DNA of 53,760 nt. Source: Clostridia bacterium. GTDB lineage: Bacteria > Bacillota > Clostridia > Oscillospirales > CAG-272. Where the stretch lies: NCBI GenBank assembly GCA_024404445.1, contig JAKSPY010000002.1, forward strand, positions 1 to 53,760, read 5' to 3'. How positions within the stretch are numbered: position 1 is the first letter of the stretch; every line of letters starts with the position of its first letter. This document shows, piece after piece, positions 35,962 to 53,760 of the stretch. A program made the translations under genes and the position numbers. The notes beneath the pieces were generated by a model. It was not told the DNA's origin. It did no database searches and worked only from the letters and a program-made list of their open reading frames with translations.

Positions 35962-36177
35962 TTATTCCGCGTTTTTATTGTCATCCGTAGCAGACTGATC
36001 GGAAAGACCGGTGCTTGCGTCGGCGTTGTCAGCAGATTGATTCACGGTTTTGTTTGTCAAGCGAAAGGACGACGATACAAACTTAGGCTTATCCCACAAA
36101 AAGATTTTCATGCCCCCTCCGCTGACCTTTTCCGCTTGCTTATCTGTAAGCTCAACAGGCTTATTTGTCTTTTTCAC
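35962..36177 (-). CDS. Double-glycine-leader peptide 3 (21-aa leader plus 50-aa core)
   Basis: MKKTNKPVELTDKQAEKVSGG|GMKIFLWDKPKFVSSSFRL...DDNKNAE. GTG start with AGAGGTG 5 nt upstream. Caveat: the GG codons (GGAGGGGGC) also mimic an SD for the internal ATG at 36111, so a 49-aa leaderless product cannot be excluded. Confidence 0.55.
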   Translation of the reverse strand: MKKTNKPVELTDKQAEKVSGGGMKIFLWDKPKFVSSSFRLTNKTVNQSADNADASTGLSDQSATDDNKNAE

Positions 36178-36234: not shown

Positions 36235-36567
36235 TCAATCGTTGATCTGATTTGCCCATGTGGGTGCGCTCGCGTGACCGATGATGAACAGTCTGGATAC
36301 TATTTCCGAGGAAAGCCTACTGATCTCATTTGTCAGAATACCGTGGGTGTAGCACGTCACCTCAAAATAATCCGAAGTTATCACGCCGGTGATGACCTCA
36401 CAGTAGTCATAACTATTATCGAGATTTCTGTTGATGCTTGTCGTTATATACTCGCCGCGCTGATAATCCTCGTTATCTATTCCGCCGAAAACGTATGCGA
36501 GTTCATCGTCTGTCAATTCTTCAGGTATATTCGTCTGATGTTTTTTTATGCTTTTTATCACTGTCAT
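36235..36567 (-). CDS. Double-glycine-leader protein 2 (29-aa leader plus 81-aa acidic core with 2 Cys)
   Basis: MTVIKSIKKHQTNIPEELTDDELAYVFGG|IDNEDYQRGEY.... Its ATG overlaps the TGA of the upstream 5'-nucleotidase gene (ATGA). There is no internal Met near the GG. Confidence 0.65.
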   Translation of the reverse strand: MTVIKSIKKHQTNIPEELTDDELAYVFGGIDNEDYQRGEYITTSINRNLDNSYDYCEVITGVITSDYFEVTCYTHGILTNEISRLSSEIVSRLFIIGHASAPTWANQIND

Positions 36568-38350: not shown

Positions 38351-38575
38351 TCATTGCAATTCTTTTAGCCTCGTTTCCTGTTGGCTTTGACCTTTATCGC
38401 CTTCGGTACCGTTCCCACCGGCGGTATCGGTGCCGCCCGCCGCATTTACAAATGCGAGACTGTCGTCAGACAACTCCACGGCATCGCGGCTTTCGGTTTC
38501 GCGAATAAGCTCTTCCAGCTTTCTGTTCTTTTCAAATCTCTGATAGTCAAACAATTTTTTCAGCCTGTTTTCCAT
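38351..38575 (-). CDS. Double-glycine-leader peptide 1 (48-aa leader plus 26-aa hydrophilic core)
   Basis: MENRLKKLFDYQRFEKNRKLEELIRETESRDAVELSDDSLAFVNAAGG|TDTAGGNGTEGDKGQSQQETRLKELQ. GAGAGGAGAA RBS 8 nt upstream of the ATG. Confidence 0.65.
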   Translation of the reverse strand: MENRLKKLFDYQRFEKNRKLEELIRETESRDAVELSDDSLAFVNAAGGTDTAGGNGTEGDKGQSQQETRLKELQ

Positions 38576-38754: not shown

Positions 38755-40950
38755 TTATTTTTCTTCGATATCCAGCCGCTGACGTTCGACAAGCGACGCA
38801 AAATACCCGTTCTTTGCGATCAGCTCATCGTAAGTACCCTCCTCGACGATCTTACCGTGATCCAGATATATGATGCGGTCGGCGTGTTGAATGGTTGACA
38901 GGCGGTGCGCGATGACTATCCTCGTGCATTTCAGTGAATCTATAGCCTCGGAAACCTTTCTTTGCGTGATGTTATCAAGCGCGCTTGTCGCCTCATCAAA
39001 CATCAATATCTTCGGCTTCGGAGCCACGGCCCGCGCAATCATCAGCCTCTGCTTCTGTCCGCCGGAAATACCGCCCTGCCCCTCTGAGATCATCGTATTC
39101 ATGCCCATCGGCATCTCACGGATATCATCGGCGATCGAGGCGATCTCCGCCGCCTCCCACGCCTGATCCATATTGAGCTCCGGAGCGGTGATGACGATAT
39201 TGGAATAGATGTCGCCGAGGAAAAGTTTTCCGTCCTGCATGACGACGCCGATCTTACGGCGCAACGACTCAGGGTCTATCCTTGCCATATCCTTCTTGTC
39301 AAAGAAGATACTGCCCTTTTGCGGTGTTTCAAATCCGAGCATCAGTCGTATCAGCGTGCTTTTTCCGCATCCGGTCGAACCGACAATGGCAAGGTATTCG
39401 CCTGTTTTTATTTTCAGAGAAAGATCGTCGATAACGTTGGGCATTGAGTCGTCATAACGGAACGACACGTGCGACAGCTCAATGGCGCCGCGCAGAGAAA
39501 CGATATTCTCCTTACCGTCGTGTACCTCCGGCTCCGCCTCCATGATCGGCCTCGACATTTCAAGCGTCGGCTTAATATTCGCGATAGTCACGGCAATCGA
39601 AACGACTGACATGAACGACGACGAAACCATGCCGTACGCGGTATTGAACGCATAATAATCCGCTATGCCGACGTTGTTCTTTATCGCCGTCGCATACAGC
39701 ACCAGCGCGCCGATAAGCGACAGTGCGAGGCTTAAAGTCCCGCTGAGCTTCAAAAACAGCGGCTGATCGTAGTTCAGCGCCGCCTCCTTGGCGTAATACC
39801 TTGCCCAACGAGAAAACATTCTTTTTTCCGCACCGGCAAGCTTGATCTTCTGAATTCCGGTGATGGTCGAATACGTCAGGCCGCTCGTTTTGGCGGACAA
39901 CTTCATCGTTTCGCTCGTGATCCTCATTTGTACAAACGTCGTCGCCAGCGACAGTACGATAGTCGCGGCGGTGATCAGCAATGACGGTACAACAAGTGAC
40001 GGAGCAAATACGAAAATCTGACCGATATAGATCAGCGAAAACAACGACGTAATTCCCGTCATACCGATAGTATTGAACAGCGTGGAGCACAACGACTGCA
40101 CATATGCGGCGCGCTGTGAAAGCTCACCGGACGAATACTGCTTAAAAAATGACGGCGGCAGGCTCATTATGCGGTTCATCACCGCAGCCTGTACCGATAT
40201 ATTCTGCTTGATACCGATGCGCGAATTGATCAAGCTCTGAAAAACGCCGAAGAACAGCCGACAGGCCGAAAAGCAGATCATGAATATTGCCAATGATATC
40301 AATACCCTGACGCTACCCGATTCGATGACATCGCTGAACAGCCATTTTGTAAACATCGGGGAAAGCAGACCGAGCGCGGCCGACGCGCCCATCAGCGCGA
40401 TATACAGAACAATATCGGAAATGCTCAATTGCTTTATCATGAATTTCAGCAAATCGCCGATATCCAGCGATTTCTGCGGCAACGGCTCATAAAAGCATAT
40501 AGCCTCGGAGTCGACGAGCTGCTCGGTTTTTCCGTTCATTCTGATTTGCTCGCCGGTCTTGATATTTTTCAGTGTGTAACCCGAAATCTTACCGGGAATC
40601 AGCGCGACGGCAGAGCCGTCCTCTTTCAGCGTGCCCAGCATTGCGCCGCTCGCGCAACGGTACCAGCCCTTATCAAGGATGACGGTGCGGCTTTTTATGC
40701 CGAACGGGCGCATACGGTACTCTATCTGCTCATCCAACGTTTTGATCTGTGTGGGAAGCTCATCGGAATTTGTTTTGCAATGATAGAATTTCAATATTTC
40801 TTCAATAGCCGATCCCGCAATCTCATTCTGACTGAGTGCCTCACGCAGGCGCGTGCCCATCACCGCATTCGCTATGGTATCTATGGCGTCGGCAACATCG
40901 GCGTTATCGGATCTTTCACGACTGCGTAATTGTTCCTCAAACCAACTCAT
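38755..40950 (-). CDS. Bacteriocin-type ABC transporter permease/ATPase without a peptidase active site (ABC2-like)
   Basis: A non-peptidase N-terminal domain of about 170 aa (no QxxxxCG motif), 6 TMs, Walker A GSTGCGKST, signature ISGGQKQR, Walker B ILMFDEATSALD. The start is taken at MSWFEEQ (40950), preceded by AAGGGGGG. Confidence 0.85.
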   Translation of the reverse strand: MSWFEEQLRSRERSDNADVADAIDTIANAVMGTRLREALSQNEIAGSAIEEILKFYHCKTNSDELPTQIKTLDEQIEYRMRPFGIKSRTVILDKGWYRCASGAMLGTLKEDGSAVALIPGKISGYTLKNIKTGEQIRMNGKTEQLVDSEAICFYEPLPQKSLDIGDLLKFMIKQLSISDIVLYIALMGASAALGLLSPMFTKWLFSDVIESGSVRVLISLAIFMICFSACRLFFGVFQSLINSRIGIKQNISVQAAVMNRIMSLPPSFFKQYSSGELSQRAAYVQSLCSTLFNTIGMTGITSLFSLIYIGQIFVFAPSLVVPSLLITAATIVLSLATTFVQMRITSETMKLSAKTSGLTYSTITGIQKIKLAGAEKRMFSRWARYYAKEAALNYDQPLFLKLSGTLSLALSLIGALVLYATAIKNNVGIADYYAFNTAYGMVSSSFMSVVSIAVTIANIKPTLEMSRPIMEAEPEVHDGKENIVSLRGAIELSHVSFRYDDSMPNVIDDLSLKIKTGEYLAIVGSTGCGKSTLIRLMLGFETPQKGSIFFDKKDMARIDPESLRRKIGVVMQDGKLFLGDIYSNIVITAPELNMDQAWEAAEIASIADDIREMPMGMNTMISEGQGGISGGQKQRLMIARAVAPKPKILMFDEATSALDNITQRKVSEAIDSLKCTRIVIAHRLSTIQHADRIIYLDHGKIVEEGTYDELIAKNGYFASLVERQRLDIEEK

Positions 40951-40963
40951 TATCCGACCCCCC

Positions 40964-43135
40964 TTATTCCGCGCTGACAAGATCGCGGTAGACGGTGCTG
41001 TTCTCCATCAGCTCCTTATGCGTTCCGCGATCTGTGATCTCGCCGTGTTCCATTACTATTATTTCATCGCACGAGCGTATCGTCGACAGTCTGTGCGCAA
41101 TGACGATACAGGTTATACCGCGTTCGCGGATAGCCTTTACGACCTCATATTCCGTCTTGGCGTCGAGCGCGCTCGTCGCCTCATCAAGGATGATTATCGT
41201 CGGCTCCTGCGCAAGCGCACGCGCGATCTCAATACGCTGTCTCTGCCCGCCGGAGAAGTCCTTACCTCCCTCGATCAGCTTGTGCTGATAGCCCTTCGGG
41301 CGTTGCATGATGTCGTCGTGTATCTGTGCGTCATGTGCGGCAAGTATCATCTCAAAGTCCTCGATGCTTTTGTCCCACATCTTGATATTATTTGCGATAG
41401 TGTCCTCAAACAGTATAATATCCTGATCCACAACGGCAAGTGAGCCGCGGAAAACATTTTTCGATATGCTGTTCATCGGTTTACCGTCGAACAGGATCTC
41501 GCCGCTCCACGGGTGATAAAGACCCGCAATCAGCTTTGACATCGTGGACTTACCGCATCCGGAGCCGCCGACGATGGCGACACTCTTACCGGGCGTGACC
41601 TTCATGCTGAAATCCTTTATCAGCGGATCGGCAAGAGGCGAATAACCGAATACGACGTTTTTCAGCTCTATTTCGCCGGACAGCTTCTGCTGTTCACCGA
41701 CGTCGCTTTGCTCATTGAATACTATATCGTCGGGATATTCCATGACGTCGTCGACACGCTCCATCTGTGTGCGCATTTCCTGCAACGTCTGACCCGCACT
41801 GATGAGGGTCATGGCAGGCGACATGAACGCCGTCAAAAATCCCTGAAACGCCATTATCATACCGACAGTGAACTGCCCCTGCATCGTCAGCCATACGCCG
41901 AGGAACAGTACCGCGTTATTTGCCACCGTAGATACGAACTGCGGTATCATGCCGAGGTACTGATTCAGCTTCATGAATTTTACCTGCTGGGTATTCACGC
42001 TGGCCTGATAGCCTGCCCATTTCTTGAAATACCCGTTTTCCGAGCCGGATGCCTTGATGGTTTCGATCATTTCGATACCGGCAACGGTTGCTGAAGACAG
42101 CTTCGCGCTGTCACGCATCGAAACACGCGTGACATTGATGCGCTTTTTGGATATGTATCTGGAAATGACGGCATTCACCGTGAGTGCGGCAAGGCCTATT
42201 ATCGTCAGCATCACATTGTAACGCAATATAACGACGAGATAGAATACCATCATCACGGCATTAAGCATCAGCGGGGCGAACGTGCCTATCAGCGTATTTG
42301 CTATCGACGCATTGGCACTCTGTCGGCCCTGTATGTCACCCGCCATGCGCTGTGAAAAGAATTTCATCGGCATTTTCAGTATTTTCCACATATACGTCGC
42401 ACTTCCGACCGACGCCATTTTACCTTTTATGCGAAGCGAGTATATCGCCTGCAATGCCGACATGACGATCTCCACCAGATCAAACACGCCGAGAAACAGC
42501 AAAAACGGAGTTGCCCACCCGGAATCTTTGCCCGTCAGCAGATGATCGAGAAAAATACGGGAGAACGCCGGCTGAACAAATCCCATCAATGCCGCGATAA
42601 CGCCCGTCAGCACAGTGAAAGCGAGCGCCGTTCCCGTACCCTGCAGACGTTTTGACGCAAATGACAGCATGCTTTTCGGCTTACCCGACGGCTCAAACGT
42701 GTCTGACGGCTCAAACTGCAGGCAGATGCCGGTAAAAGATTCATCAAACGTGTCCATGGCGACACTGTACGTTCCCTTTGCGGGGTCGTTCAGATATGCT
42801 CTTCCGCCCTTGAAGCCGTCAAGAACAACAAAGTGATTGAAATTCCAATGTATGATGCACGGGAATTTACCGTGCTCTCTGAGTGTGTCGGGCTCATAGC
42901 GATAGCCCTTTGCCTTGAGGCCGTAGTACCGCGCGGCCTTTAACACGTTACGCGCATTCGATCCGTCGCGCGATACACCGCAGTCCTCACGCACCTGCTC
43001 CAGCGGCACCCATTTATTATAATAGGCCAAAACCATACAAAGGCTTGCCGCACCGCATTCCAATGCCTCCAACTGCATGACGACAGGTACGTTGGCTACG
43101 CCCGTTTTTATCGGATGTTTTCTGTTTTTTGCCAT
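40964..43135 (-). CDS. Peptidase-C39-domain bacteriocin ABC exporter (peptidase/permease/ATPase; ABC1-like)
   Basis: The N-terminal C39 domain has an intact triad context: VMQLEALECGAASLCMVLAYY (Cys), NHFVVLDG (His), AYLNDPAKG (Asp). It also has 6 TMs, Walker A GGSGCGKST, signature FSGGQRQR and Walker B IIILDEATSALD. Confidence 0.92.
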   Translation of the reverse strand: MAKNRKHPIKTGVANVPVVMQLEALECGAASLCMVLAYYNKWVPLEQVREDCGVSRDGSNARNVLKAARYYGLKAKGYRYEPDTLREHGKFPCIIHWNFNHFVVLDGFKGGRAYLNDPAKGTYSVAMDTFDESFTGICLQFEPSDTFEPSGKPKSMLSFASKRLQGTGTALAFTVLTGVIAALMGFVQPAFSRIFLDHLLTGKDSGWATPFLLFLGVFDLVEIVMSALQAIYSLRIKGKMASVGSATYMWKILKMPMKFFSQRMAGDIQGRQSANASIANTLIGTFAPLMLNAVMMVFYLVVILRYNVMLTIIGLAALTVNAVISRYISKKRINVTRVSMRDSAKLSSATVAGIEMIETIKASGSENGYFKKWAGYQASVNTQQVKFMKLNQYLGMIPQFVSTVANNAVLFLGVWLTMQGQFTVGMIMAFQGFLTAFMSPAMTLISAGQTLQEMRTQMERVDDVMEYPDDIVFNEQSDVGEQQKLSGEIELKNVVFGYSPLADPLIKDFSMKVTPGKSVAIVGGSGCGKSTMSKLIAGLYHPWSGEILFDGKPMNSISKNVFRGSLAVVDQDIILFEDTIANNIKMWDKSIEDFEMILAAHDAQIHDDIMQRPKGYQHKLIEGGKDFSGGQRQRIEIARALAQEPTIIILDEATSALDAKTEYEVVKAIRERGITCIVIAHRLSTIRSCDEIIVMEHGEITDRGTHKELMENSTVYRDLVSAE

Positions 43136-43145
43136 GTCGCGCTCC

Positions 43146-43565
43146 TCAATTCAGAACGAATGACATCGGGCGGTAGCTTTCGACCACGAGCTTAGCGTCA
43201 TAGAAGCCGTCCGCGAGAGAAGAACCCAACGATAAAACACATGCATATCCGGATTCACCGTTTTCGCCGATGTCGGTGATGACGGCATCGCAGTCGGCAA
43301 GCTTTACGGTCATACCGACCCGTGCCGATGAAATATTCTCCTCTGAAATATAGCAAACAGCGTCCCCGTTTTCCACGCGGACAATGACCGGCACCGTGCT
43401 GTCTATATGGCCGAATACGCCCCAAACGCAGGCACCCGCCAGCAGAATGATCACGCTGACCAGAATCAGCCACACGCCGGGATTTGACACGCGGATATAA
43501 TCGTCAAGGTTTTCCGGTGATTTGACCCTGTCCAGACTTTTCTTTCTGAATATTTCTTCATTCAT
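43146..43565 (-). CDS. Short HlyD-like bacteriocin-secretion accessory protein
   Basis: FRKKSLDRVKSPENLDDYIRVSNPGVWLILVSVIILLAGACVWGVFG matches the conserved N-terminus and TM of NHLP/NHLM-type HlyD secretion proteins. The protein is only 139 aa, with no coiled-coil hairpin. AAGGAGAA RBS. Confidence 0.7.
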   Translation of the reverse strand: MNEEIFRKKSLDRVKSPENLDDYIRVSNPGVWLILVSVIILLAGACVWGVFGHIDSTVPVIVRVENGDAVCYISEENISSARVGMTVKLADCDAVITDIGENGESGYACVLSLGSSLADGFYDAKLVVESYRPMSFVLN

Positions 43566-43779: not shown

Positions 43780-43808
43780 TTGACACTGTAAGTGCGATAT
43801 GGTATACT
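43780..43808 (+). promoter_or_regulatory. Near-consensus extended -10 promoter of the 7TM/PrsW pair
   Basis: TTGACA (43780-43785), 17 nt spacer, TATACT (43803-43808), with TGg upstream of the -10. It lies about 130 nt upstream of the ATG at 43941. Confidence 0.65.
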
Positions 43809-43940: not shown

Positions 43941-44597
43941 ATGCAAGAAATATCTTTCAGGCTCGTATCCTTTCTGATCGCGGCTTTCGCGTTCGGATTC
44001 GGCGCCGTCTGCCTGTTCAGAAAGAAAAAGCCGCTGTACTTTCAACTGCTTGTATGCGCGGCAGGGTGCTATTGTATCGCACAGCTCGCGACAGTCATCA
44101 ATATCTGGTGCGCCGTGACCTCATCCGTCAGCGTCGGTATGCTGGGTATTTTCGGATGCAATTTCTTTTTGCTGTCGGCGAATTTCGGTACGCTGGACCG
44201 CATCGTCGATGACGGCAGTAATACAAAAGGTCCGGCGCGCGCCGCCGTCATTGCTCCGGTCGTCATGGCCGCGGCCACTGTTGCGGCCTTCTGCGCATGG
44301 GTAAAAAGCGATACATTCTGTGCCTTGGCGTGGGTGATCATGTTATTGCCCGCCCTGCCGGCGTCGTACTTTAATCTGAAGCACATACTGTTGCCGATAG
44401 ACGCATTCGGCTTTTTGCGGGCGACGAAGCCCTGCAATATCATAGCCATCGTATTTTACGTGATGACCGCGGCATACGTCATCGGTTCCGCGTTGGGTAG
44501 CGGCACCGTCGGCGGAATTCTGTCGATATTGATGTCGCTGACCGTTATAGGTCTGACGCTTGCGGCCGTCAAGGGGGCGAAGCAATGGGGAATCTGA
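43941..44597 (+). CDS. 7-TM membrane protein of unknown family (PrsW partner, copy 1)
   Basis: 218 aa with about 7 hydrophobic segments. It shares the motifs K(K/G)KPLYFQ, GCY, ANxG, (F/Y)NL(K/R)H, P(I/V)D and AVKGAxxW with the ORF at 51610-52254. Confidence 0.7.
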   Translation: MQEISFRLVSFLIAAFAFGFGAVCLFRKKKPLYFQLLVCAAGCYCIAQLATVINIWCAVTSSVSVGMLGIFGCNFFLLSANFGTLDRIVDDGSNTKGPARAAVIAPVVMAAATVAAFCAWVKSDTFCALAWVIMLLPALPASYFNLKHILLPIDAFGFLRATKPCNIIAIVFYVMTAAYVIGSALGSGTVGGILSILMSLTVIGLTLAAVKGAKQWGI

Positions 44598-45214
44598 ATC
44601 TTATCCTGTTCATCAGCTTTGCCGCTCCGCTTCTGATGACGCTGTTCGTCTGCCGCGGGAAAGCGAGAACGCTGTTGATTTTTTTGTTTTTCGGTACTGT
44701 CGTGTGTCTGTTCTGCGGTGAATTCAGTGCCATATTACTGAAAACACTTCCGTTCGACCGTCGGTACTTCACGTCCAATTTCACACCACTGTTCGAGGAG
44801 GTATTCAAGGCCGTTCCGATACTCGTTTTTGCGTTTTTGTTCCAGCCGAAAAAGCGCACGTTATTGGAATGCTCACTGTTGGTCGGGGTCGGATTTGCGG
44901 TTTTGGAAAACGCGTTCATCCTCGGCGGATCGGCTACGTCGGTTTCCGTCGTCAATGCGCTGATACGCGGTTTCGGTGCCGGCATGATGCACGGCGTATG
45001 CACGTTGGCCGTCGGATACGGCATGACGTTCGTTCACACGAGACGTAAGCTTTTCTATACCGGCACGATCGCGCTGCTGTCCACGGCGACTATATACCAT
45101 GCGATCTATAATACGTTGGTACAGTCCAATCATCAGCTGGTCGGATTCATATTGCCGGTTGCCACGTTCATCCCCGTCCTTATCCTGCTGAACAAAACTG
45201 CGGGTTTCGACTGA
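44585..45214 (+). CDS. PrsW-family intramembrane protease (copy 1)
   Basis: PrsW signature motifs are present: FEEVFK (EExxK), GFAVLENAF (FxxxE), GAGMMHGV (H) and IYHAIYN (HxxxN). Length is 209 aa. It overlaps the upstream gene by 13 nt. Confidence 0.8.
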   Translation: MGNLNLILFISFAAPLLMTLFVCRGKARTLLIFLFFGTVVCLFCGEFSAILLKTLPFDRRYFTSNFTPLFEEVFKAVPILVFAFLFQPKKRTLLECSLLVGVGFAVLENAFILGGSATSVSVVNALIRGFGAGMMHGVCTLAVGYGMTFVHTRRKLFYTGTIALLSTATIYHAIYNTLVQSNHQLVGFILPVATFIPVLILLNKTAGFD

Positions 45215-45238
45215 AACAGCATAAATGACCACGTCAAA

Positions 45239-45272
45239 GGGCAGTGAGCTTACTTACTCACTGCCCTTTTTT
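45239..45272 (+). terminator. Intrinsic terminator after PrsW copy 1
   Basis: gggcagtgag-loop-ctcactgccc (10-bp stem) followed by tttttt. Confidence 0.75.
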
Positions 45273-45294
45273 CACGGTTTCCGATGATATTTTA

Positions 45295-45939
45295 TCAATC
45301 GCCTTTGATCTTCGCTTTTTCCTCGCGCCTGTTGCGGAACATATCGAGAAGCCTTTCTATTCTGACAATTTCAAAAAGAGCGGCGATTTCAAGCAGCTTC
45401 ATCGCAACCATCGTTAATTTGTTGCCCCACCATTTTTTGCCCGGAACGGCGGCGAGCAAACGTACGACGTCAAAGCCGAGCAAGACAATGAACAGCAACA
45501 CGATCAGCATGAGCGCGCCGGTGTTGATCATAACGCGTCTCGGATTGCTCTTATGCTCCGCCGTCATCAGAAAGTGATACGTTAATATTACAGTGAACAA
45601 AACGGATGTCGCGATCTGAACCGCGAATGAGAACCAATCATAAAACTCCGGCTCTGAATCCTCGGTAAGAAAAAGGAAATTGACGGTATCCACCAGATAA
45701 AATAATTCCCAACACAGAAGCACGGTCAAAACCGCTGAAAGCGCCGCCTTCATGGCGTTCTTTTCGTGCAAGACAAAAGCGCTTGACAGGACGAACAGCA
45801 TAACAACAGTTACCAGCATCGGATATACGTCATATATCCTGTACGTGATCTTGAAATACACGGACAAAACGATCGATGCAATACAGAGTGTCAAGCAGAA
45901 ATACGGTATGATTTTCAGCATCTTATTATCGGAATTCAT
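45295..45939 (-). CDS. Polytopic membrane protein of unknown function
   Basis: 214 aa with about 6 TMs and a basic C-terminal tail. I recognise no motif. Confidence 0.55.
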   Translation of the reverse strand: MNSDNKMLKIIPYFCLTLCIASIVLSVYFKITYRIYDVYPMLVTVVMLFVLSSAFVLHEKNAMKAALSAVLTVLLCWELFYLVDTVNFLFLTEDSEPEFYDWFSFAVQIATSVLFTVILTYHFLMTAEHKSNPRRVMINTGALMLIVLLFIVLLGFDVVRLLAAVPGKKWWGNKLTMVAMKLLEIAALFEIVRIERLLDMFRNRREEKAKIKGD

Positions 45940-45973
45940 AATTCGTTACCCCCGACATCGCAGATTTTACTGC

Positions 45974-46002
45974 ATTATATCACATTCATGAGTTTTTTTC
46001 AA
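45974..46002 (-). promoter_or_regulatory. Near-consensus extended -10 promoter upstream of the 214-aa membrane protein gene
   Basis: The minus strand reads TTGAAA (45997-46002), 17 nt spacer, TATAAT (45974-45979), with TGa upstream of the -10. Confidence 0.55.
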
Positions 46003-46347
46003 TAATAAATTTCTCAAAAAAGAATTTCACAGCGAAGGATCCTGTGGCAGAATTGAATTTGGCCACATCAATTCCAAAAGGAATCATCGCTATGGACGGA
46101 CCGATTATGTCACAGCACATCGAAAGAACTGTTCAAAGCCGAACTTGATCGCCTTTTCGCCGTGTGACCGCGGTGCACGCCGACGAAATTGCCCAACAGT
46201 CGGAAAAGATCACCGTCGAATACATAAAAATGCTTGTTAAGGTCCGACACGGGCGATGCCCTTACACGTCAGTCGATTGCCCCCGCCCGTTCATATCGAC
46301 CGATACGCGGTTTCCGCAGGACTTTTTCCATCCCCGTATTACGGCGA

Positions 46348-47124
46348 TCATTTTGATTTTCCGAAAAGAGCCATGCATCCGAGGGAAAGCGGCATCGTTG
46401 CGCTGATCAGCACGATCCCGACGATGTAGACGGTGTTCCAGATATCATAGGTACCTACGGTCTTCTCCCCGACATACACCGTTACCGCCACGCCCGCCAG
46501 CAGAATCGCCTGCGCGACCGCCGTGATGATGATAATGATCTCGTTTCGTGTCAGTATACGTTCGGTCCCGGCACGTCGGGATATGATCTGATTGGATATG
46601 ACCATCAACGGACATCCGAGCACCACGGACATATGAAAATTATTCAACAGAACAAAAAGCGCCGCTTGTGTTGGGTCAAAATGGAAATTGATATACATAA
46701 TCACGCCGACACCGAACGCACTGATCAATGAAAAGACAAGGCATATCAGCGCATATTTAAGCACGCGCGCGGCACAGTCGAGACGGTGCCGGTGATCCTC
46801 GCCCTTCATTAGAATTTTCCACAAATAATACGGAACCATTGTGTACAAAAATTGCGGTATAAGACCCTCAAAAAGTATAGCAAGTGAATAGCCGTTTATT
46901 GCGTCACAAATGAAATTCGCCGTCATTATTCCGAGTGCCGACGGTAAGCCGAAGCTGATACCGAGAAACGGGTAGAGCACGGCAGACGGGCGCACCTCCG
47001 TTACGGTAAAAACCGAAAATAATCCATGAAACGGTAAAGTCGTGATAAAAAATGCGATTCCCGATAACAGATAGATCAAAACAAAACGTATGGCTTTATT
47101 ATTTTTCATGTTGGTATTCTCCAT
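46348..47124 (-). CDS. Polytopic membrane protein, QueT/ECF-S-component-like
   Basis: 258 aa. The segment VRPSAVLYPFLGISFGLPSALGIMTANFICD resembles the QueT-type substrate-capture protein signature. The assignment is tentative. Confidence 0.45.
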   Translation of the reverse strand: MENTNMKNNKAIRFVLIYLLSGIAFFITTLPFHGLFSVFTVTEVRPSAVLYPFLGISFGLPSALGIMTANFICDAINGYSLAILFEGLIPQFLYTMVPYYLWKILMKGEDHRHRLDCAARVLKYALICLVFSLISAFGVGVIMYINFHFDPTQAALFVLLNNFHMSVVLGCPLMVISNQIISRRAGTERILTRNEIIIIITAVAQAILLAGVAVTVYVGEKTVGTYDIWNTVYIVGIVLISATMPLSLGCMALFGKSK

Positions 47125-47204
47125 TCGGATCGTCAGACGGACAGGAAAGATCCTAATCCGGTTTATATGGACAGATTCATCGTTAGCTATTTATATTTTT
47201 GCGT

Positions 47205-48680
47205 TTATAAAACGACAGTCGGGATATCGAGAAGCTCGCCGACCTTACAAAACAGACTCGCGTTATGCCCGACGGTAAGCGCACAATGATGCGTCGGCGC
47301 TTCGGCAAACCATTTCTCCATATATGAATCCGGATCTGTCGAAAATCTGACCGGCGTTTGCGTATTGCCGATCGTCATGATCGGGCCGTTTGTCGCCTCT
47401 GCCTCGCTGATGATCAGTTTCAGCTTTCCATCGCGTGTCTGCGTGACGTTCAGCGTCGTGATGGGACCGGGCTTGACCTTAGCCTCCACGGAAATGCCGC
47501 TTCCCTTTTTGCCGTGATATACCTGCATCCCGCGCAAAATCGGCTTGCGGTCGGATATGCGGATGTGAAACGGGCCGTCGTGACCGATCAGGATCGTACC
47601 GTCACGATAGTCTGCGACCACGATCTCGGCAAAGCTGCCGCCAACACCTGCCAAATCGCCGATCTTCATGGCCAGCGCAGTTTTCAGATCCGCTTCTCCC
47701 GCGCAGGGGATCCCACGGGAGGTCAGCAGTGAATGGCCGACTATAAATCCGCTTTGTAATTCTTCATACGGATTACCGTCAACACTGTGATAATAATAGG
47801 CAAGACCGCCGAGCCCATAGTCAGCAACCATCTTTTCCTGTGCGACGGCGACCGCGGCAGACCAATCAAGCTGATCATCAGACGGCTTTCTGACCCTCGT
47901 ATCGGACGGTGAACCCTCCGCGATCTCAAATATCCGGCAGATCTCATCCCGCTTTTCCTTTATCTCCGCATCGGTTACCTCTGTCAAAAAGGCGTTCAGA
48001 TCACACATTTCTATGATCTTGACACGTACACCCGCCTTGGCCGAAAGCATGGTGAAATCCGAGTACATATCGAGCATACCGGAGTAATTGCCGCCGAGAA
48101 AGCCGAAAACAGTGCGGGAAAGCTCGGCCCTGATACCGGCGGCAAGCGCCCATTCTTCTATTTCTTTCCATGCGCGCACCGCCGCGGGATGCTCTGACGT
48201 TTTCTCACATGACATGGCGATCTCAGGCGTTTCCGAAAGTCCGAGCAAACCGCTGACGAAATAAAACGAAATGCCCGCACGTTCAAAGGCATTGGATATT
48301 TCGGGCACGGGGCAGGCACAGCACTGAGCCAGCCACTCACCGGTATCGGTGCGCTCATAGTCGATCCTCGGCGATGGTTGCAGATTCAATACGACTACCG
48401 GCACCTTTACCGACAGATGAAGCGGAAGCACAGAATCGGACGTGAAATATGTCGCGCTGTGCAGAAAAATGATATCGACCTGCTCCGCGGCAAAATAGCG
48501 GATGGCGTCGTCTGCCCGATCCATATCATCCAATAGGCCGAAATTGCAGACCGTGCCGCAGGACGAAAGCTTTTGTTCTATAAACCGATTGTAGCCGAGA
48601 AGACGCTCCTTGAGTCCGGCAAATTGTGACCAATAGGCGCGAAGCCCGGCGCTGTACAGTCCGATACGAACGCTTTTCAT
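47205..48680 (-). CDS. L-fucose/L-arabinose isomerase-family protein
   Basis: 491 aa. The N-terminal Rossmann-like region (MKSVRIGLYSAGLRAYW...VDIIFLHSATY) and overall size match this isomerase superfamily. Substrate is unknown. Confidence 0.65.
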   Translation of the reverse strand: MKSVRIGLYSAGLRAYWSQFAGLKERLLGYNRFIEQKLSSCGTVCNFGLLDDMDRADDAIRYFAAEQVDIIFLHSATYFTSDSVLPLHLSVKVPVVVLNLQPSPRIDYERTDTGEWLAQCCACPVPEISNAFERAGISFYFVSGLLGLSETPEIAMSCEKTSEHPAAVRAWKEIEEWALAAGIRAELSRTVFGFLGGNYSGMLDMYSDFTMLSAKAGVRVKIIEMCDLNAFLTEVTDAEIKEKRDEICRIFEIAEGSPSDTRVRKPSDDQLDWSAAVAVAQEKMVADYGLGGLAYYYHSVDGNPYEELQSGFIVGHSLLTSRGIPCAGEADLKTALAMKIGDLAGVGGSFAEIVVADYRDGTILIGHDGPFHIRISDRKPILRGMQVYHGKKGSGISVEAKVKPGPITTLNVTQTRDGKLKLIISEAEATNGPIMTIGNTQTPVRFSTDPDSYMEKWFAEAPTHHCALTVGHNASLFCKVGELLDIPTVVL

Positions 48681-48810
48681 TTATTAACCCCTCTTCCGTT
48701 TTATTCTGTGATTCTGTTTCTGAATATCATGAGAAAACCGACAAGTGTTACGTTATGCCGGATCCCGGTTTATGTAAGACCGAGAAAAAACAAAAAAGCG
48801 ACGAGGCAAT

Positions 48811-50622
48811 TTATCGGCAAACAAAGGTTATGATCAGTTTATTCGTTTCAAAAACGTGCATATAGCCGATATCGGACGCGACATTGCTGACAATCCGTAT
48901 GCCGATATTTTTCGTTTTGTCTGCACCCTTCGCATTTGCTTTCCCGATCAGTTCAGTAATATCATAATGCGGACAATTGTCGCTCAGTCTGATCACAAAT
49001 CTGTCGTCAGTGATAACGGCACGAAAATCGATGATAGGATGTGCGGAACGGTTTTTGACGAATCCGTATTCTACGATATTATTTGCCAGCTCTTCGACCG
49101 AAAGCGCGGCAAAATATGCGATTTTACTATCGATCTTGTGCCCTTTGCAGAACAACATGACCTGTTCTGATGCGAGAACGACGTCATACATATCACGAAT
49201 GTCGAGAGAAATGACATCGCCGGGTTTCAAATAGAATTCGTCGGAAAGGCTGAGATAATCATCCCGCTTCGGTAATTTGCCGCGTTTTTTCACGGTATAG
49301 AAAACAAATATCGCCAGCAGAGTGAGCGCGTCACTGACCGTGTAGCAGGCCAGAATACCGTAAACGCCGAATCGCTTTCCCAGCACAAACGCGGACAATA
49401 AAACGAACACGAGGTGTCCCGCCAATATCAGCAGATTCATATTGATTCTTTTATAAACCGACTGAAGATATTTGATTCGGCCCTCAATGAGCGCCTGAAG
49501 CGGGGTCTGAAGCGCAAGCATCCTTATCGCAAACGTCACCATTGTCCGAACCTCGTCGTTTTCGGTAACGTAGAGGCCTGCAATAGGTTTCGCAAATACA
49601 AGCAGCAGTACGCATACAGAGCCCGCGAAAGCGGCAATCATTTTATGAGCATAAGTTGTGACCTCGTCGATAGCCTCCACATTGACCTCGCCGAAATATA
49701 CTCCGGTCAGCAGAGAAACGGCAGACGCGATGCCCGCACCGAAAATCTGAGCGAAATTCGCAAAATTATTGCGCACCGAAAGAGCCGCCATAGCCACTGT
49801 GCCGCCGTACCCGATAATAATGATATTCAGTACGATCGGGCGGATTATATTGGCGATACGTTTGACCGCTTTTTCGTTGCCGTTGGCAAGCATCCTGATA
49901 AATTCAATAACCGGAATATTCGGCTTGACCAAATGAAGCATTCTGTCCTTCTTTTTGATAAAATGACTGCATTGATAGAGCAGATTCATCATACTTGCGA
50001 CAGATGTCGCCAAACCGACACCGAATATTCCCCAGCCTATTTTAATGGCGATCAAATCAAGCACCACATCGGCAACAGCCTCGATCAGCGCGCCCGTCTG
50101 AATGGTTTTGCGTCCGCTGTCAAGCTGTATGGCGGAGGCAAGAATGACCGTCATAATGAGAGGCGGAACGCCGAATCCGAGCCCCATTGCGTATTTTGAC
50201 GCAGGCTCAAGTAGATTCGCCGCGTTTTCAGATACGCCGAGCAAAACGGCAAACGGCTTTGAAAATACAATGATCAATACTGCTGTGAGCAACGAAACAG
50301 CCGTTCCGCAATAGACCGTAGCACTGAAAAAACGCACAAATTCATCACGATTACCGCGACCTATCGAGCGGGAACAGCGCACCTGCATTCCGATGGCAAG
50401 CACACCGCTGATGACACCGAGGATGCTGAAAAGCGGATGAATGATACCCTCGGCCGCCATTTCATCCGGGCCGAGATACCGACTTATCATAAGCCCGTCG
50501 ATAAATCCGGCGCCGACCTGCGAGAACTCAATGATCATTCCCGTCAGAAGCAGTGAGAAAAACGTTTTATCTGTTATTATCCATCGATGGCGTTTCCATT
50601 TTGACGAAAAAAACGAGCTCAT
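48811..50622 (-). CDS. MATE-family transporter fused to a C-terminal GHKL (HATPase_c, RsbW/SpoIIAB-like) domain
   Basis: The first 460 aa or so are a 12-TM MATE (FIDGLMISRYLGPDEMAA...). The last 135 aa or so carry an N-box-like motif EELANNIVEYG, a degenerate G1 motif SDNCPHYD and a G2-like motif IGIRIVSNVA. Confidence 0.7.
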   Translation of the reverse strand: MSSFFSSKWKRHRWIITDKTFFSLLLTGMIIEFSQVGAGFIDGLMISRYLGPDEMAAEGIIHPLFSILGVISGVLAIGMQVRCSRSIGRGNRDEFVRFFSATVYCGTAVSLLTAVLIIVFSKPFAVLLGVSENAANLLEPASKYAMGLGFGVPPLIMTVILASAIQLDSGRKTIQTGALIEAVADVVLDLIAIKIGWGIFGVGLATSVASMMNLLYQCSHFIKKKDRMLHLVKPNIPVIEFIRMLANGNEKAVKRIANIIRPIVLNIIIIGYGGTVAMAALSVRNNFANFAQIFGAGIASAVSLLTGVYFGEVNVEAIDEVTTYAHKMIAAFAGSVCVLLLVFAKPIAGLYVTENDEVRTMVTFAIRMLALQTPLQALIEGRIKYLQSVYKRINMNLLILAGHLVFVLLSAFVLGKRFGVYGILACYTVSDALTLLAIFVFYTVKKRGKLPKRDDYLSLSDEFYLKPGDVISLDIRDMYDVVLASEQVMLFCKGHKIDSKIAYFAALSVEELANNIVEYGFVKNRSAHPIIDFRAVITDDRFVIRLSDNCPHYDITELIGKANAKGADKTKNIGIRIVSNVASDIGYMHVFETNKLIITFVCR

Positions 50623-50671
50623 AGTTTACCTCAGTCGGCCTCTTTCCTTAAAACTATGCTATATTTTATGT

Positions 50672-50700
50672 ATTGTACCATATTATCCCATTGTTTTCAA
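50672..50700 (-). promoter_or_regulatory. Extended -10 promoter upstream of the MATE-GHKL gene
   Basis: The minus strand reads TTGAAA (50695-50700), 17 nt spacer, TACAAT (50672-50677), with TGg upstream of the -10. Confidence 0.55.
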
Positions 50701-50924
50701 GAAAAATCTGCCGTCTTCCTCGCATATGAAACACAAAAAGGCTTTACAGCTCAAAACCATCGCATGGGTCATAACAGCCTTAAACAATTATCAATCCATT
50801 GTTTGAAAATCAAGCAGTCGTTGACTGTTGATATGAAGCAATGTCGCCCGCGTTTGTGCTGTTCCCTCTTATCATTTCGTTAATAACTCCGCAATCACAA
50901 TTAACGTGTAGTTTCACCAAACGT

Positions 50925-50966
50925 ACACAAAAATAAAAGCGACGATTAAAATTCGCCGTCGCTTTT
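50925..50966 (-). terminator. Intrinsic terminator after PrsW copy 2
   Basis: Arms aaaagcgacg (50935-50944) and cgtcgctttt (50957-50966). On the minus strand the hairpin is followed by UUUUAUUUUUGUG. Confidence 0.7.
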
Positions 50967-50992
50967 ATGTTTTTGCTTATTTTTATTTGTGA

Positions 50993-51622
50993 TTATTCTT
51001 TTCTGCAAATTTTCTTTATAAATAGCATAGAAGGAATAAATAACAAAGTCGGCATTAAAAATCCCGCTACGTAATATTCGCAACAAACGAGATAGTTATA
51101 AATAGAGTGATATATTATTGCCGTTGCGATAAGACCTATCGAACCCGAAAGAAACAATTTACGCTTGTGATAAATAAACGATAACCCGAACCCGACGAAG
51201 AGCATTGTCATAACGTGCATCATACCTGCACCAAACGCTCTTAAAACAGCCGTCAACACGTCTATTTGATTGACACTGCTTGCGAAAACGAAGGCGTTTT
51301 CCAAAATTGCAAAACCAACGCCAACAGCTATAGCACGTTCGATAATATCCTGCCTTGTCGGTTTTATTGTAAAAGCGCAGATAAATATCGGTAAGATTTT
51401 GAGCAGTTCTTCTATCATAGGCGAAAAGGTAGTAACGTATGCGTTTTGAGAATAAGGCAAAAGTCTGAATATAACTCCGTTTAACTCTCCACAAAATAAC
51501 GCAACGGTTAAACCTATAATTACAAAACACACAAGCGACTTGGTTTTACTTTTGCTCATAATTAAAACTATAGAAAGCGGTACGGTTATACTTAAATACA
51601 AAAACAGATTCAGAAATTCCAT
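50993..51622 (-). CDS. PrsW-family intramembrane protease (copy 2)
   Basis: MIEELLK (EExxK), GFAILENAF, GAGMMHVM and IYHSIYN. At 209 aa it is collinear with copy 1. It overlaps its upstream partner by 13 nt. Confidence 0.8.
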   Translation of the reverse strand: MEFLNLFLYLSITVPLSIVLIMSKSKTKSLVCFVIIGLTVALFCGELNGVIFRLLPYSQNAYVTTFSPMIEELLKILPIFICAFTIKPTRQDIIERAIAVGVGFAILENAFVFASSVNQIDVLTAVLRAFGAGMMHVMTMLFVGFGLSFIYHKRKLFLSGSIGLIATAIIYHSIYNYLVCCEYYVAGFLMPTLLFIPSMLFIKKICRKE

Positions 51623-52254
51623 TTTTCTGCCCCCTTAACCGCCGAAAATGCTAACGCCATAGATACTAACGCCAAGACGAGATCAGCGATTCCGGATATT
51701 ATGCCGGGGTTAATCCAACAGGCAATATCCAAAATACCGGTTATGCAAAACGTCATTGAAAAAATATCAGTCAGCCTTAAACCTTTAATTAAGCCCAACT
51801 CGTCCACCGGCGTAAACAAGTGCCTTAAATTATAGCAAACGACCAAGCACGCAGGTATTTGTTCTAATATGAAAATAAAGATTGTGATTTTAAATTCGTC
51901 AAAATAGAATATTCCGACGACTATTGACAGTGCAAACGTCAATAGTCCTGCCAAAATACTTAAAAGGGTAAACTTTGTTTTCGGTTTATCGAACAATTTT
52001 TCAACAGCACCGTGGTTTGCGCAATACAAAAACCAATAACAACCTAAAAGTCCAAAGAAACCGTCGTTAAAATAAGTTTCGGTGACTTCGCAAAATGTCA
52101 TTACTATTACAAACAACTGATAGAGTGCATAGCACCCGATCGCAGCAACTATTATTTGGAAATATAAAGGTTTACCCTTTCTCCACAGCTTTATAGCCCC
52201 GTAGAAAAAAGCAAACAGCAATACTATTTCCGCAGCAATTTCAAAATATAACAT
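51610..52254 (-). CDS. 7-TM membrane protein of unknown family (PrsW partner, copy 2)
   Basis: 214 aa, a paralog of 43941-44597 (shared motifs are listed there). AAAGGGGAAAA RBS. It lies 46 nt downstream of the beta-helix protein gene. Confidence 0.7.
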   Translation of the reverse strand: MLYFEIAAEIVLLFAFFYGAIKLWRKGKPLYFQIIVAAIGCYALYQLFVIVMTFCEVTETYFNDGFFGLLGCYWFLYCANHGAVEKLFDKPKTKFTLLSILAGLLTFALSIVVGIFYFDEFKITIFIFILEQIPACLVVCYNLRHLFTPVDELGLIKGLRLTDIFSMTFCITGILDIACWINPGIISGIADLVLALVSMALAFSAVKGAEKWNF

Positions 52255-52300
52255 TTTTCCCCTTTTAGTTAGTTAAAGTTAGAAGTTAACTTTTCACTTC

Positions 52301-53760
52301 TCACTCACTTTTCTTCTTTTTCTTAACGTGCAAGAATATATACACGCCTGCGGTGATAAGAGCAACGCCGCCTACCACGCAGATAATTATAATTGAACCG
52401 CTTGATAAAAGCGTACCAGTACCGTTGCCAATACCGATAGAATAAGTTCCGTTACGGTTTTCAATCGTATAATTTGTCGCCTTACCGCCGTCGGCGATAG
52501 CGTCCGCAGTGCCGACAAGATATAAATTGTTTTTACGTCCGTCTATCGATCCCGTAAAACCCGTTAACTTTGCAAACCAAATCAAATTATCCGCTGTAAT
52601 TGCGAATTTACCCGAATTCAGGGACTTATTAACGTATTTAGTGTTAACGTACGTTAAATATACTAATTTTTGACTTGATATTGTATACGGGTTGGGGTCT
52701 GTTCCCGCACCGCGGTATTCTAAGAAATTTTCCGGGGTGTTTCCGGAACATCCGGTTTGTTTTGAAGAATAGCTATTCCAAGCATTATCGAATATTCTAT
52801 CCATGCTACTATTATACAAATGACAACCGTTCATACTTTTGAACCCGGTAATTTCATTTGCAGTACCGCAAGTTGCCTTGTCGTAAACGAAATAGCAATT
52901 CGTGTAAGCGGTATCCGATTCTTCGTCATAAACCGCACCGCCCTTATATGCACTGTTTTCGGTGAAATAACAGTTCGTCATGACATATTTTCGTTCTTCG
53001 AGATATATAGCACCGCCACATACGTTTCGTCTTTCGAGATATGCATCGCCATATGCGTCATTTCCGGCCGAGTTGTTAAAGAAAGTACAATCTTCTACAC
53101 GAATGTAGCCTGCGGCAAGATACATTGCACCACCGGCCGCACCGCTTTTATTGTTTGAGCATATAAAACCTTTAAAAGTACCGTAACTGTAAGTGTCGTT
53201 ATCGTAAATTGCACCGCCGTATTGTTTTGCATAACAATTATTGATAATGTTTTTCCCCTTGCCCTCCAAGTCGCCGACATCTACGTACATAACGTTTAGG
53301 TAAATACAACCGCCGTCGTTTCCGTTGTTTCTGCAGTTATCGAACACGCAATTCGTCATATTAAACTTTGCATGATTTTCGTAACTTCTTGTACTACCGC
53401 TAATATCGTCTATGTAAATCATAGTACCGCCGTCGTTTGTGCAGTCGTAAAAACGGTTGTTAATAAAACTTACTTCATAATTGCCCGTTTGGTTGAAATA
53501 AAATGCACCGTTTCCGTTAAATGTGCAGTTGGTAAATCTACAGTCGTTAACTTTAACTTTTCCTTTGCCACTACCGGTTACGTTAAACAATCTGTCGCAT
53601 TCTATGCCGTCAAACGTTATTTGGTTCAAATACAATCCGCCGCATACACTGCCAAACGTACCGCCACCGGTATATTTGACCGTTCCGCGAGTCAATGAAA
53701 AATCACCGTTTCCAATCGTAAAGGGCTTTTTTATTGTTATCGTATGACCGTTTAAAAGGA
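52301..53760 (-). CDS. Membrane-anchored parallel beta-helix surface protein with GGA(I/V/M)Y repeats; 5' end lies outside the window
   Basis: Repeating units of the form xTNCxFxxNxAxxGGA(I/M/V)Y occur (GGAIYDND, GGAMYLAAG, GGAIYLEER, GGAVYDEE), as in polymorphic-membrane-protein-type repeats. The C-terminus has a TM (IIIICVVGGVALITAGVYIF) plus HVKKKKKSE. The frame stays open upstream of the track TTG to position 53760. Confidence 0.75.
   Translation of the reverse strand, partial: LLNGHTITIKKPFTIGNGDFSLTRGTVKYTGGGTFGSVCGGLYLNQITFDGIECDRLFNVTGSGKGKVKVNDCRFTNCTFNGNGAFYFNQTGNYEVSFINNRFYDCTNDGGTMIYIDDISGSTRSYENHAKFNMTNCVFDNCRNNGNDGGCIYLNVMYVDVGDLEGKGKNIINNCYAKQYGGAIYDNDTYSYGTFKGFICSNNKSGAAGGAMYLAAGYIRVEDCTFFNNSAGNDAYGDAYLERRNVCGGAIYLEERKYVMTNCYFTENSAYKGGAVYDEESDTAYTNCYFVYDKATCGTANEITGFKSMNGCHLYNSSMDRIFDNAWNSYSSKQTGCSGNTPENFLEYRGAGTDPNPYTISSQKLVYLTYVNTKYVNKSLNSGKFAITADNLIWFAKLTGFTGSIDGRKNNLYLVGTADAIADGGKATNYTIENRNGTYSIGIGNGTGTLLSSGSIIIICVVGGVALITAGVYIFLHVKKKKKSE

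Follow-up and report, generated by a model that had tools for sequence, protein, structure and literature searches.

The window analysed here, i.e., the whole 53,760-nucleotide (nt) stretch at the start of contig JAKSPY010000002.1 from a Clostridia bacterium (assembly GCA_024404445.1), carries two copies of a two-gene module. Each copy consists of a gene for a seven-transmembrane (7-TM) protein, followed by a gene for a PrsW-family intramembrane protease. The four open reading frames (ORFs) lie exactly where the earlier note, made from the sequence alone, had placed two diverged copies of such a module:

43941 to 44597, plus strand: 7TM-1, 218 amino acids (aa), from the ORF listing, member of an orphan seven-helix family, predicted N-out/C-in
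44585 to 45214, plus strand: PrsW-1, 209 aa, PF13367 match, PrsW-family glutamic-type intramembrane protease with intact motifs
50993 to 51622, minus strand: PrsW-2, 209 aa, PF13367 match, paralogue of PrsW-1 with intact motifs
51610 to 52254, minus strand: 7TM-2, 214 aa, paralogue of 7TM-1

In both modules the ORFs overlap by 13 nt, the protease ORF beginning 13 nt before the stop of the 7-TM gene. The proteins share 29% identity between 7TM-1 and 7TM-2 (BLASTP, E=8e-34) and 41% between PrsW-1 and PrsW-2 (E=5e-64), and all common motifs that had been picked out by eye are visible in the two alignments. Judged from these comparisons, the paralogy of both partner pairs is far beyond chance. At the DNA level a single 36-nt match connects the modules, and the G+C content differs strongly, with 0.55 and 0.51 for the genes of module 1, and 0.38 and 0.36 for those of module 2. 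This agrees with the earlier claim that the two copies are not a recent repeat. The presence of two copies in one window is typical, because at least nine assemblies, as told from contig names, hold two or three diverged modules each.

The 7-TM/PrsW pair is an invariant unit, and its adjacency, previously noticed for the two copies in the window, extends to other genomes. Among GTDB species genomes, the PrsW gene is located immediately downstream in 24 of 26 7-TM loci, the exceptions being one contig end and one frameshifted copy. The protease query retrieved 74 further loci, 67 of them with the 7-TM gene directly upstream; four of the remaining seven are cut by contig ends. On metagenome contigs from JGI, the 7-TM gene precedes PrsW in 49/49 loci whose contig extends far enough upstream. 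An overlap of the two ORFs is present in all 74 loci compared, with a length of 13 nt in 65, 19 nt in eight and 1 nt in one, and the two families co-diverge, as indicated by the correlation of their pairwise identities (r=0.93, Mantel p=0.001, n=70). Neighbour clustering revealed no gene other than the pair that is conserved across all loci. A few of the module-bearing metagenome-assembled genomes (MAGs) are labelled as Paludibacteraceae, Coriobacteriales or Bacilli, while the module is otherwise found in herbivore-gut Clostridia. Errors of binning or classification may lie behind these odd labels, or else horizontal transfer.

The 7-TM partner, which the earlier note could not assign to a family, belongs by sequence and model comparisons to an orphan family. 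A word-indexed search gave 298 relatives, and the 120 listed ones, unnamed or “hypothetical” and originating from Clostridia MAGs, are about 215–235 aa long, nearly all 215–220 aa. An exhaustive profile search through 1.84 billion cluster representatives extended the family to 372 clusters at E<=0.001, in which full-length matches have about 205–253 aa and no domain fusions. Neither 7TM-1 nor 7TM-2 has a Pfam or NCBIfam match, a Pfam scan of 113 diverse members gave no consistent family, and PDB sequences were matched by neither the 7-TM nor the PrsW profile. An AlphaFold2 model, built from the 113-sequence alignment, shows seven helices with high confidence (predicted local distance difference test, pLDDT, 96.6; predicted template modelling score, pTM, 0.92), and its best match in a Foldseek search against the PDB has E=0.054.

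Several candidate relationships were rejected. The similarity to rhodopsin-like 7-TM proteins is that of a generic bundle (TM-score 0.5–0.59, root-mean-square deviation 6–7 Å, the E of 0.054 being the best), and a microbial rhodopsin is ruled out by the lack of a mid-helix-7 lysine, the sole conserved lysine of helix 7 being at its cytoplasmic end. A degenerate PrsW/CPBP paralogue, an idea prompted by the archaeal PrsW-like fusions mentioned in PMC3482391, found no support in hhalign (probability 0.3%) or in Foldseek, which gave no Rce1 match. None of the four module proteins has a PADLOC match that would indicate anti-phage defence, and the TMcin pathway for membrane RiPPs (peptides made on ribosomes and modified after translation; PMC13252029) uses an S2P protease and is unrelated.

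The loop charges of the 7-TM family indicate an N-out/C-in topology, with on average 2.2, 2.8, 1.0 and 2.8 lysines plus arginines in the inside segments, and 0.4, 0.55 and 0.3 in the outside ones. Conserved residues, in 7TM-1 numbering, are C43, G72, F76, A80, N81, G83, D86, D90, P106, Y143, K147, H148, P152, N166, G212 and W216. The polar ones are mostly placed at the cytoplasmic face (N81, D86, D90, Y143, K147, H148, N166 and W216). C43, conserved in 103 of the 113 diverse members, is situated mid-membrane, and together with G69-x-x-G72 it forms a surface of the protein within the bilayer.

The proteases of the window score 55.6 (PrsW-1) and 52.3 bits (PrsW-2) against PF13367, with a cut-off of 23.5. 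The four signature motifs claimed for them, E71-E72-x-x-K75, F104-x-x-x-E108, H136 and H172-x-x-x-N176, are intact in both and invariant in 70/70 relatives, the window copies included. Against NF033739, the NCBIfam equivalog model of Bacillus subtilis PrsW, they reach only 22.8 and 28.8 bits, far below the cut-off of 225, and thus they are members of the PrsW family, but not orthologues of B. subtilis PrsW. The CPBP domain PF02517 was not matched in the Pfam scan. As for the 7-TM protein, the loop charges indicate N-out/C-in (mean lysine plus arginine inside 2.7, 2.7, 3.3 and 2.8, outside 1.3, 0.04 and 0.2). E71/E72 fall at the outer start of transmembrane helix (TM) 3, TM4 carries E108/N109 at its outer end, and TM6 has H172/N176 in its outer third. 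The catalytic residues are hence predicted to lie within the membrane's outer half, at the height of the juxtamembrane motif of a type I anchor. This placement agrees with the activity of B. subtilis PrsW, which is the site-1 protease of the anti-sigma factor RsiW and cuts it on the extracytoplasmic side. The parallel with RsiW does not extend to the gene neighbourhood. In line with the earlier note, which saw no sigma gene in the window, none was found near either module, among ten mid-sized ORFs of the window, or by tblastn with an extracytoplasmic function (ECF) sigma factor, a check that was not exhaustive. Across 126 loci, genes for sigma factors, anti-sigma factors or kinases are not conserved beside the module.

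A hint toward the substrates came from the PrsW genes without a 7-TM neighbour. Three of them (L060, 3773–5624; L066, 147–2020; L067, 3792–5639) form a subclade in which G45-E46 is replaced by G-D, and in which PrsW directly follows a secreted PI-PLC-X-like protein. The latter ends with PATAT[VI][LI]GDSE, a TM helix and a KR-rich cluster. Because these loci carry a protein with a TM helix plus basic tail directly upstream of PrsW, all flanks were surveyed for such proteins. The survey uncovered a tripartite C-terminal domain, of which the PI-PLC-X-like tail is a variant. In the genome collection the domain is strongly enriched beside the module, with a directional bias, it is carried by unrelated passengers, and its subtype covaries with the module clade.

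In an alignment of 33 sequences, the shared tail consists of [GA]-S-x-[FLI]-S-x-G-[NS], a helix of about 21–23 residues and KKKK, often followed by PALADG and acidic residues; the motif contains no conserved cysteine. All matches of at least 15 bits to a hidden Markov model (HMM) of the domain are at protein C-termini, ending within 29 aa of the end. Full-length carriers have a signal-peptide-like start, according to a simple hydropathy rule. Their passengers are unrelated, and include Listeria-Bacteroides repeat, beta-helix/PMP, PETase-like hydrolase, BspA leucine-rich repeat (LRR) and PI-PLC-X-like proteins, so that homology between carriers is, as far as sequence comparison can tell, confined to the C-terminal domain. 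Of the curated NCBIfam sorting-domain models, among them GlyGly-CTERM, Firmicu-CTERM and Loki-CTERM, none reaches its cut-off on the tails. The best scores are those of LPXTG_anchor (14.3, cut-off 15.9) and GVDTG_CTERM (14.2, cut-off 29), and no Pfam C-terminal domain was found in the carriers. Firmicu-CTERM, considered as a candidate and unmatched by the tails, belongs to exosortase G (PMC12854382). A 44-aa profile of the domain, searched against 5.8 billion proteins, retrieved only 14 short unnamed fragments.

At the gene positions adjoining the module, and on its strand, there is a concentration of proteins that end with a TM helix and basic cluster. The position test comprised 83 non-redundant loci of the genome collection (81 from GTDB, plus the two modules of the window). 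Carriers amount to 6/58 genes at position −2, 21/72 at −1, 16/73 at +1 and 2/64 at +2, compared with 2/233 genes three or more positions away. Taken together, the two nearest positions on each side hold 45/267 carriers versus 2/233 farther away (odds ratio 23, Fisher p=3.7e-11), and 44 of the 45 near carriers are co-oriented with the module (p=3e-12). Several carrier ORFs overlap module ORFs by 3–12 nt. At least one carrier is present in the fetched flanks of 39/83 loci, a directly adjacent one in 29 of the 63 loci with both flanks, and L022 has four carriers around a single module. LPXTG-type tripartite proteins occur in the same flanks, but not adjacent to the module, and serve as an internal control for the adjacency of the carriers. 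When genome and metagenome loci are pooled, the enrichment persists (near 51/411, far 4/292, p=6e-9).

The type of signal follows the PrsW clade. S[ED]G[NS] accompanies PrsW-1-like and GTL[LM]S[ST]GS accompanies PrsW-2-like modules, with IFGEGS and VFSGG types found with intermediate clades. A carrier is located within two genes in 15/36 PrsW-1-like and 4/4 PrsW-2-like loci, in 6/20 loci of a clade with a neighbouring response regulator, and in 16/66 of the remaining ones. Carriers also occur away from the module. The strict motif [AG]S[VI]LSEG[SN][LIV]W, searched in 185,579 species genomes, was found at 12 loci in eight assemblies, seven of which were already known to hold the module on another contig. 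At these loci up to four carriers stand in tandem, remote from the module, and one assembly has a third module there. L108 has four tandem carriers on a different contig from the module of its assembly, and the carriers of JAZUKE number three or more. Several carriers per processing module is a many-to-one pattern. With the tail from the window as query, only three loci were retrieved, all in assemblies with module-2-type pairs.

That tail belongs to the gene directly upstream of module 2:

52301 to 53760, minus strand: candidate module 2 substrate gene, encoding a beta-helix/PMP-repeat surface protein (Chlam_PMP and Beta_helix matches)
52304 to 52426, minus strand: tripartite C-terminal domain, with GTLLSSGS (52394 to 52417), a 21-aa TM helix and the tail HVKKKKKSE
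50940 to 50958, minus strand: intrinsic-terminator-like hairpin with T-run, 35 nt after the PrsW-2 stop

The frame of the candidate substrate is still open at the window end, position 53760. Its tail is the only match in the 53.7-kb window to the C-terminal-domain HMM, which was built from flanking genes of other loci (46.4 bits; the next ORF of the window scores 6.5). The stop codon precedes 7TM-2, which is on the same strand, by 46 nt, and the gap contains a ribosome-binding site and no terminator. Together with the hairpin after PrsW-2, the lack of a terminator in the gap makes this a three-gene operon of candidate substrate, 7TM-2 and PrsW-2. The hairpin is situated roughly at the edge of a low-G+C segment (0.39), which extends from about 50894 to the window end. 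Positions 50894–52429 are 97% and 95% identical at the DNA level to L024 and L086, two contigs of other MAGs. In the part of the candidate substrate gene that encodes the passenger, the match is to L113 instead (91–95% identity). The joint of this mosaic falls at the start of the C-terminal domain, and looks like a cassette exchange of passengers on a constant tail. Regarding the origin of the two copies, the earlier note had left the choice between an old duplication and an independent acquisition. The location of module 2 in a low-G+C segment that is 95–97% identical to contigs of other MAGs favours independent acquisition.

Module 1 has no carrier gene nearby, and its substrates, if any, would be encoded outside of the window. 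It has its own promoter-like site about 130 nt 5' of the 7TM-1 start, which is a consensus match only and not evidence of function, and which is divergent from a second site in front of an exporter operon:

43780 to 43808, plus strand: promoter-like site of module 1, TTGACA-17-TATACT with extended-10 TG, 11/12 consensus matches
43690 to 43662, divergent from the module 1 site: promoter-like site of the exporter operon, from a consensus scan

The comparative data point to a class of substrates other than the 7-TM protein. On balance we lean toward the view that each module is a two-subunit membrane machine, which processes C-terminally anchored surface proteins in a sortase-like manner. The substrates would be exported by Sec through their N-terminal signal peptide, and would be held in the membrane by the tripartite domain, i.e., the juxtamembrane motif, the single TM helix and the cytoplasmic KKKK cluster. 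The gene neighbourhood and the predicted topology, which brings the catalytic residues level with the motif, suggest that the PrsW-type protease cleaves at or near the juxtamembrane motif and frees the passenger from its anchor. The passenger would then be either released or re-attached. We infer the whole role of the 7-TM protein, including its binding of helix and tail. It would be an obligate partner, made in a fixed ratio with the protease via the overlapping ORFs, and it may recognise or hold the TM helix and basic tail of the substrate. Candidate contact sites are the conserved cytoplasmic acidic face with D86 and D90, on which KKKK might dock, and the TM2/TM3 surface of small residues with G42-C43 and G69-x-x-G72. 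Module 2 would serve the GTL[LM]S[ST]GS type, with its candidate substrate just upstream, and module 1 the S[ED]G[NS] type, with substrates elsewhere in the genome.

Several observations speak against such a processing machine. The three PrsW loci without a 7-TM gene mean that the 7-TM protein may be dispensable for cleavage. Carriers are absent from the fetched flanks of 44/83 genome loci, module 1 included, for which an action in trans has to be assumed. The enrichment was not reproduced in the metagenome sample, consisting mainly of short contigs of the response-regulator clade (near 6/144, far 2/59). Furthermore, the co-occurrence was measured on loci, not on whole genomes, and is confounded by taxonomy, since both the module and the signal occur only in one narrow set of gut Clostridia MAGs. 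Finally, the one clade with a response regulator usually upstream (20 loci) would also fit a role in signalling.

Such a role, i.e., regulated proteolysis upon an envelope signal as in the PrsW-RsiW system, with the 7-TM protein as sensor, inhibitor or substrate, is unlikely in our view. Its output would go to a transcription factor encoded adjacently or elsewhere, and the anchored proteins would merely be members of the regulon. To our knowledge, all PrsW proteins characterised so far function in the activation of sigma factors (see also PMC3482391). In the 20 loci mentioned, the response regulator (REC plus OmpR-type winged helix-turn-helix) is directly upstream and co-oriented, and in L025 an ECF sigma gene is located 1.6 kb upstream of the module, the single such case. 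Operon-encoded membrane partners that regulate membrane proteases are also known, as for example SppI-SppA (PMC7568657). However, the response regulator is found in a single clade only, the neighbourhood of the module has no conserved sigma, anti-sigma or kinase gene, and the 7-TM protein lacks a soluble domain to which a sigma factor or regulator could be bound, its 372 relatives all being about 220 aa long with short loops. Moreover, a regulon explains neither a common tail on unrelated passengers, nor its covariation with the module clade. The strong position and strand biases (p=3.7e-11 and 3e-12 in the genome set) count against a pair that degrades misfolded or surplus membrane proteins, for which the adjacency of carriers would have no specific meaning. 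The lack of a nearby carrier in about half of the loci, and of a near/far difference in the metagenome sample, would fit with such quality control, yet the overlaps of carrier and module ORFs, the covariation of signal subtype and clade, the narrow rather than universal distribution of the family, and the several diverged modules per genome argue for specificity instead of housekeeping. We regard it as improbable.

Two further explanations give the 7-TM protein or the pair a different task. A monoderm cell would presumably lose the cleaved protein unless it is re-attached, and the 7-TM protein could be a new membrane transpeptidase or transferase, linking the protein to a lipid or wall polymer through C43 or the cytoplasmic N81/Y143/H148/D86 cluster, with PrsW only removing the anchor. 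Fusions of exosortases with CPBP proteases exist and would be a parallel. The conservation of C43 in 103/113 members, and of the polar cluster, is unusual for a passive adaptor. Nevertheless, there is little probability to such an enzyme, as the family resembles no enzyme in sequence or fold, exosortases and sortases included, its conserved polar residues are mostly cytoplasmic, on the wrong side for an exported substrate, and the three PrsW loci pair with a carrier and no 7-TM gene. The remaining explanation starts from the neighbourhood of module 1, which, as noted before, is divergent from a peptide exporter. The exporter genes (38755–43565, minus strand) are a genuine NHLP-type double ABC system with a C39 peptidase (TIGR03796, 940 bits; TIGR03797, 692 bits, just under cut-off). 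Beyond them are three ORFs with double-glycine leaders on the minus strand, at 35962–36177 (..KVSGG|), 36235–36567 (..YVFGG|) and 38351–38575 (..NAAGG|). The earlier note proposed that the pair could provide immunity to these peptides or sense them. ORFs similar to the 74-aa peptide encoded at 38351–38575 (pep74) are indeed present within about 2 kb of the module in two other genomes, and only there (L009 and L025), and relatives of the CPBP family are often annotated as bacteriocin immunity proteins (Haft, bioRxiv 10.1101/2023.06.07.544157). Yet of the other genome loci, about 100 having been tested, not one places a C39-domain exporter beside the module. The ABC matches near other modules lack the peptidase domain, all beginning after residue 114 of the C39 transporter from the window, and exporter components are absent from the conserved-neighbour clusters. 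Module 2 in the same window has no exporter, and the pep74-like ORF of L025 overlaps an ECF sigma gene, not an exporter. The position of the exporter next to module 1 looks incidental, and we give the immunity proposal hardly any credence.

Among known systems, the myxosortases (MrtX/MrtC/MrtP; MYXO-CTERM, JDVT-CTERM, CGP-CTERM; bioRxiv 10.1101/2023.06.07.544157; PMC11980579, mBio 2025) are, together with rhombosortase, the closest to the processing of anchored proteins proposed here. In these, too, a glutamic intramembrane protease from the Rce1/CPBP/PrsW superfamily goes with a tripartite signal, which forms the C-terminus of many secreted proteins that are otherwise unrelated, and the link between the two was likewise found via neighbourhood and co-occurrence. 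Their protease is of the CPBP type (PF02517), whereas that of the window is of the PrsW type (PF13367). The hosts in our case are monoderm gut Clostridia, with a constant separate 7-TM partner, to which nothing corresponds in myxosortase systems, and with several diverged modules that can coexist in one genome. Unlike the myxosortase signals, the signal described here has no invariant cysteine, and thus does not imply a step with a lipidated cysteine. Rhombosortase and GlyGly-CTERM (PMC3237569; PMC6219818) share the Gly/Ser-rich juxtamembrane motif, TM helix and basic residues, as well as the many-to-one removal of the signal by a dedicated intramembrane protease. In contrast, rhombosortase is a rhomboid serine protease of Gram-negative bacteria, without sequence relation to the 7-TM protein or PrsW.

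B. subtilis PrsW is of the same Pfam family, has the same four motifs, and is likewise predicted to act extracytoplasmically on a single-pass protein. It differs from the pair of the window, beyond not being orthologous, by its sigma/anti-sigma partner, which has no counterpart here, by the absence of an obligate 7-TM partner, and by the orientation of its substrate, RsiW being N-in and the candidate substrates being type I exoproteins (N-out/C-in). PrsW domains have also been proposed to process polymorphic toxins for release (Zhang et al. 2012, PMC3482391), a proposal based on comparative genomics alone. There, PrsW forms the N-terminal part of the toxin polypeptide and processes the chain to which it belongs, while here it is a stand-alone protein with separate candidate substrates and a 7-TM partner. 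With the sortase/LPXTG system, the carriers have in common that they are surface proteins of Gram-positive bacteria with a motif, TM helix and basic tail, and LPXTG_anchor matches the part with TM helix and tail below its threshold (12–14 bits versus 15.9). They lack the LPXTG motif, however, and the enzyme would be a glutamic intramembrane protease, not a cysteine transpeptidase.

A full-text literature search returned no paper connecting PrsW with a C-terminal sorting signal, and NCBIfam release 20 has no model for the 7-TM family, for this PrsW subfamily, or for the C-terminal domain. As judged from these comparisons, new features of the system would be the use of the PrsW branch, a cysteine-free signal outside the curated models, an obligate 7-TM partner of novel structure, and several modules per genome that match signal subtypes. 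Whether this amounts to an unrecognised sorting pathway of gut Clostridia is close to evenly balanced, with doubt slightly prevailing. PrsW and the 7-TM protein would together form the “sortase”, several modules would each have their own signal subtype, and the 7-TM protein would be a substrate receptor or transferase of a new kind.

Which proteins a bacterium displays on its surface is decided by C-terminal sorting signals, together with the enzymes dedicated to them. Each such system, be it sortase, exosortase, archaeosortase, rhombosortase or myxosortase, made dozens of unannotated surface proteins per genome interpretable, and sortase also yielded protein-engineering tools. If the processing by PrsW and the 7-TM protein holds true, the PrsW family would gain a second physiological role beyond the cleavage of anti-sigma factors, and an orphan 7-TM family of about 370 clusters would receive a function. 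In addition, a sequence tag would mark the proteome that abundant, uncultured Clostridia of herbivore guts display or shed, with adhesin-like beta-helix and LRR proteins and hydrolases.

Some further observations concern the neighbours of the modules. In the clade with a response regulator (L081, L082, L094, L099, L174 and 15 others; position −1 or −2) no histidine kinase is adjacent, and the response regulator is often preceded by a conserved 344-aa protein without a Pfam match. At the exporter locus of the window, a 139-aa protein is matched by the NHLP HlyD-type secretion protein only over the first 46 residues of the latter, and a 5'-nucleotidase gene is interposed among the genes of the double-glycine-leader peptides. 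The pep74 homologues (L009, 4236–4454; L025, 3698–3892) have a conserved N-terminal part of 47 aa and short hydrophilic tails after AAG(G), and the one in L025 overlaps the start of the ECF-type sigma gene (3885–4370). This overlap suggests that the peptides are regulatory or pheromone-like, and not a bacteriocin.

Between the two modules of the window, two more multi-pass membrane proteins are encoded on the minus strand (45295–45939, 214 aa; 46348–47124, 258 aa). They have no Pfam or NCBIfam match and, by those scans, no relation to the 7-TM family. The gene at 48811–50622 on the minus strand encodes a 603-aa fusion protein, in which a MATE efflux transporter is followed by a C-terminal HATPase_c_2 domain with the RsbW/SpoIIAB-type kinase fold. 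A copy of this fusion, 54% identical, is encoded convergently to the module in L003 (7448–9244).

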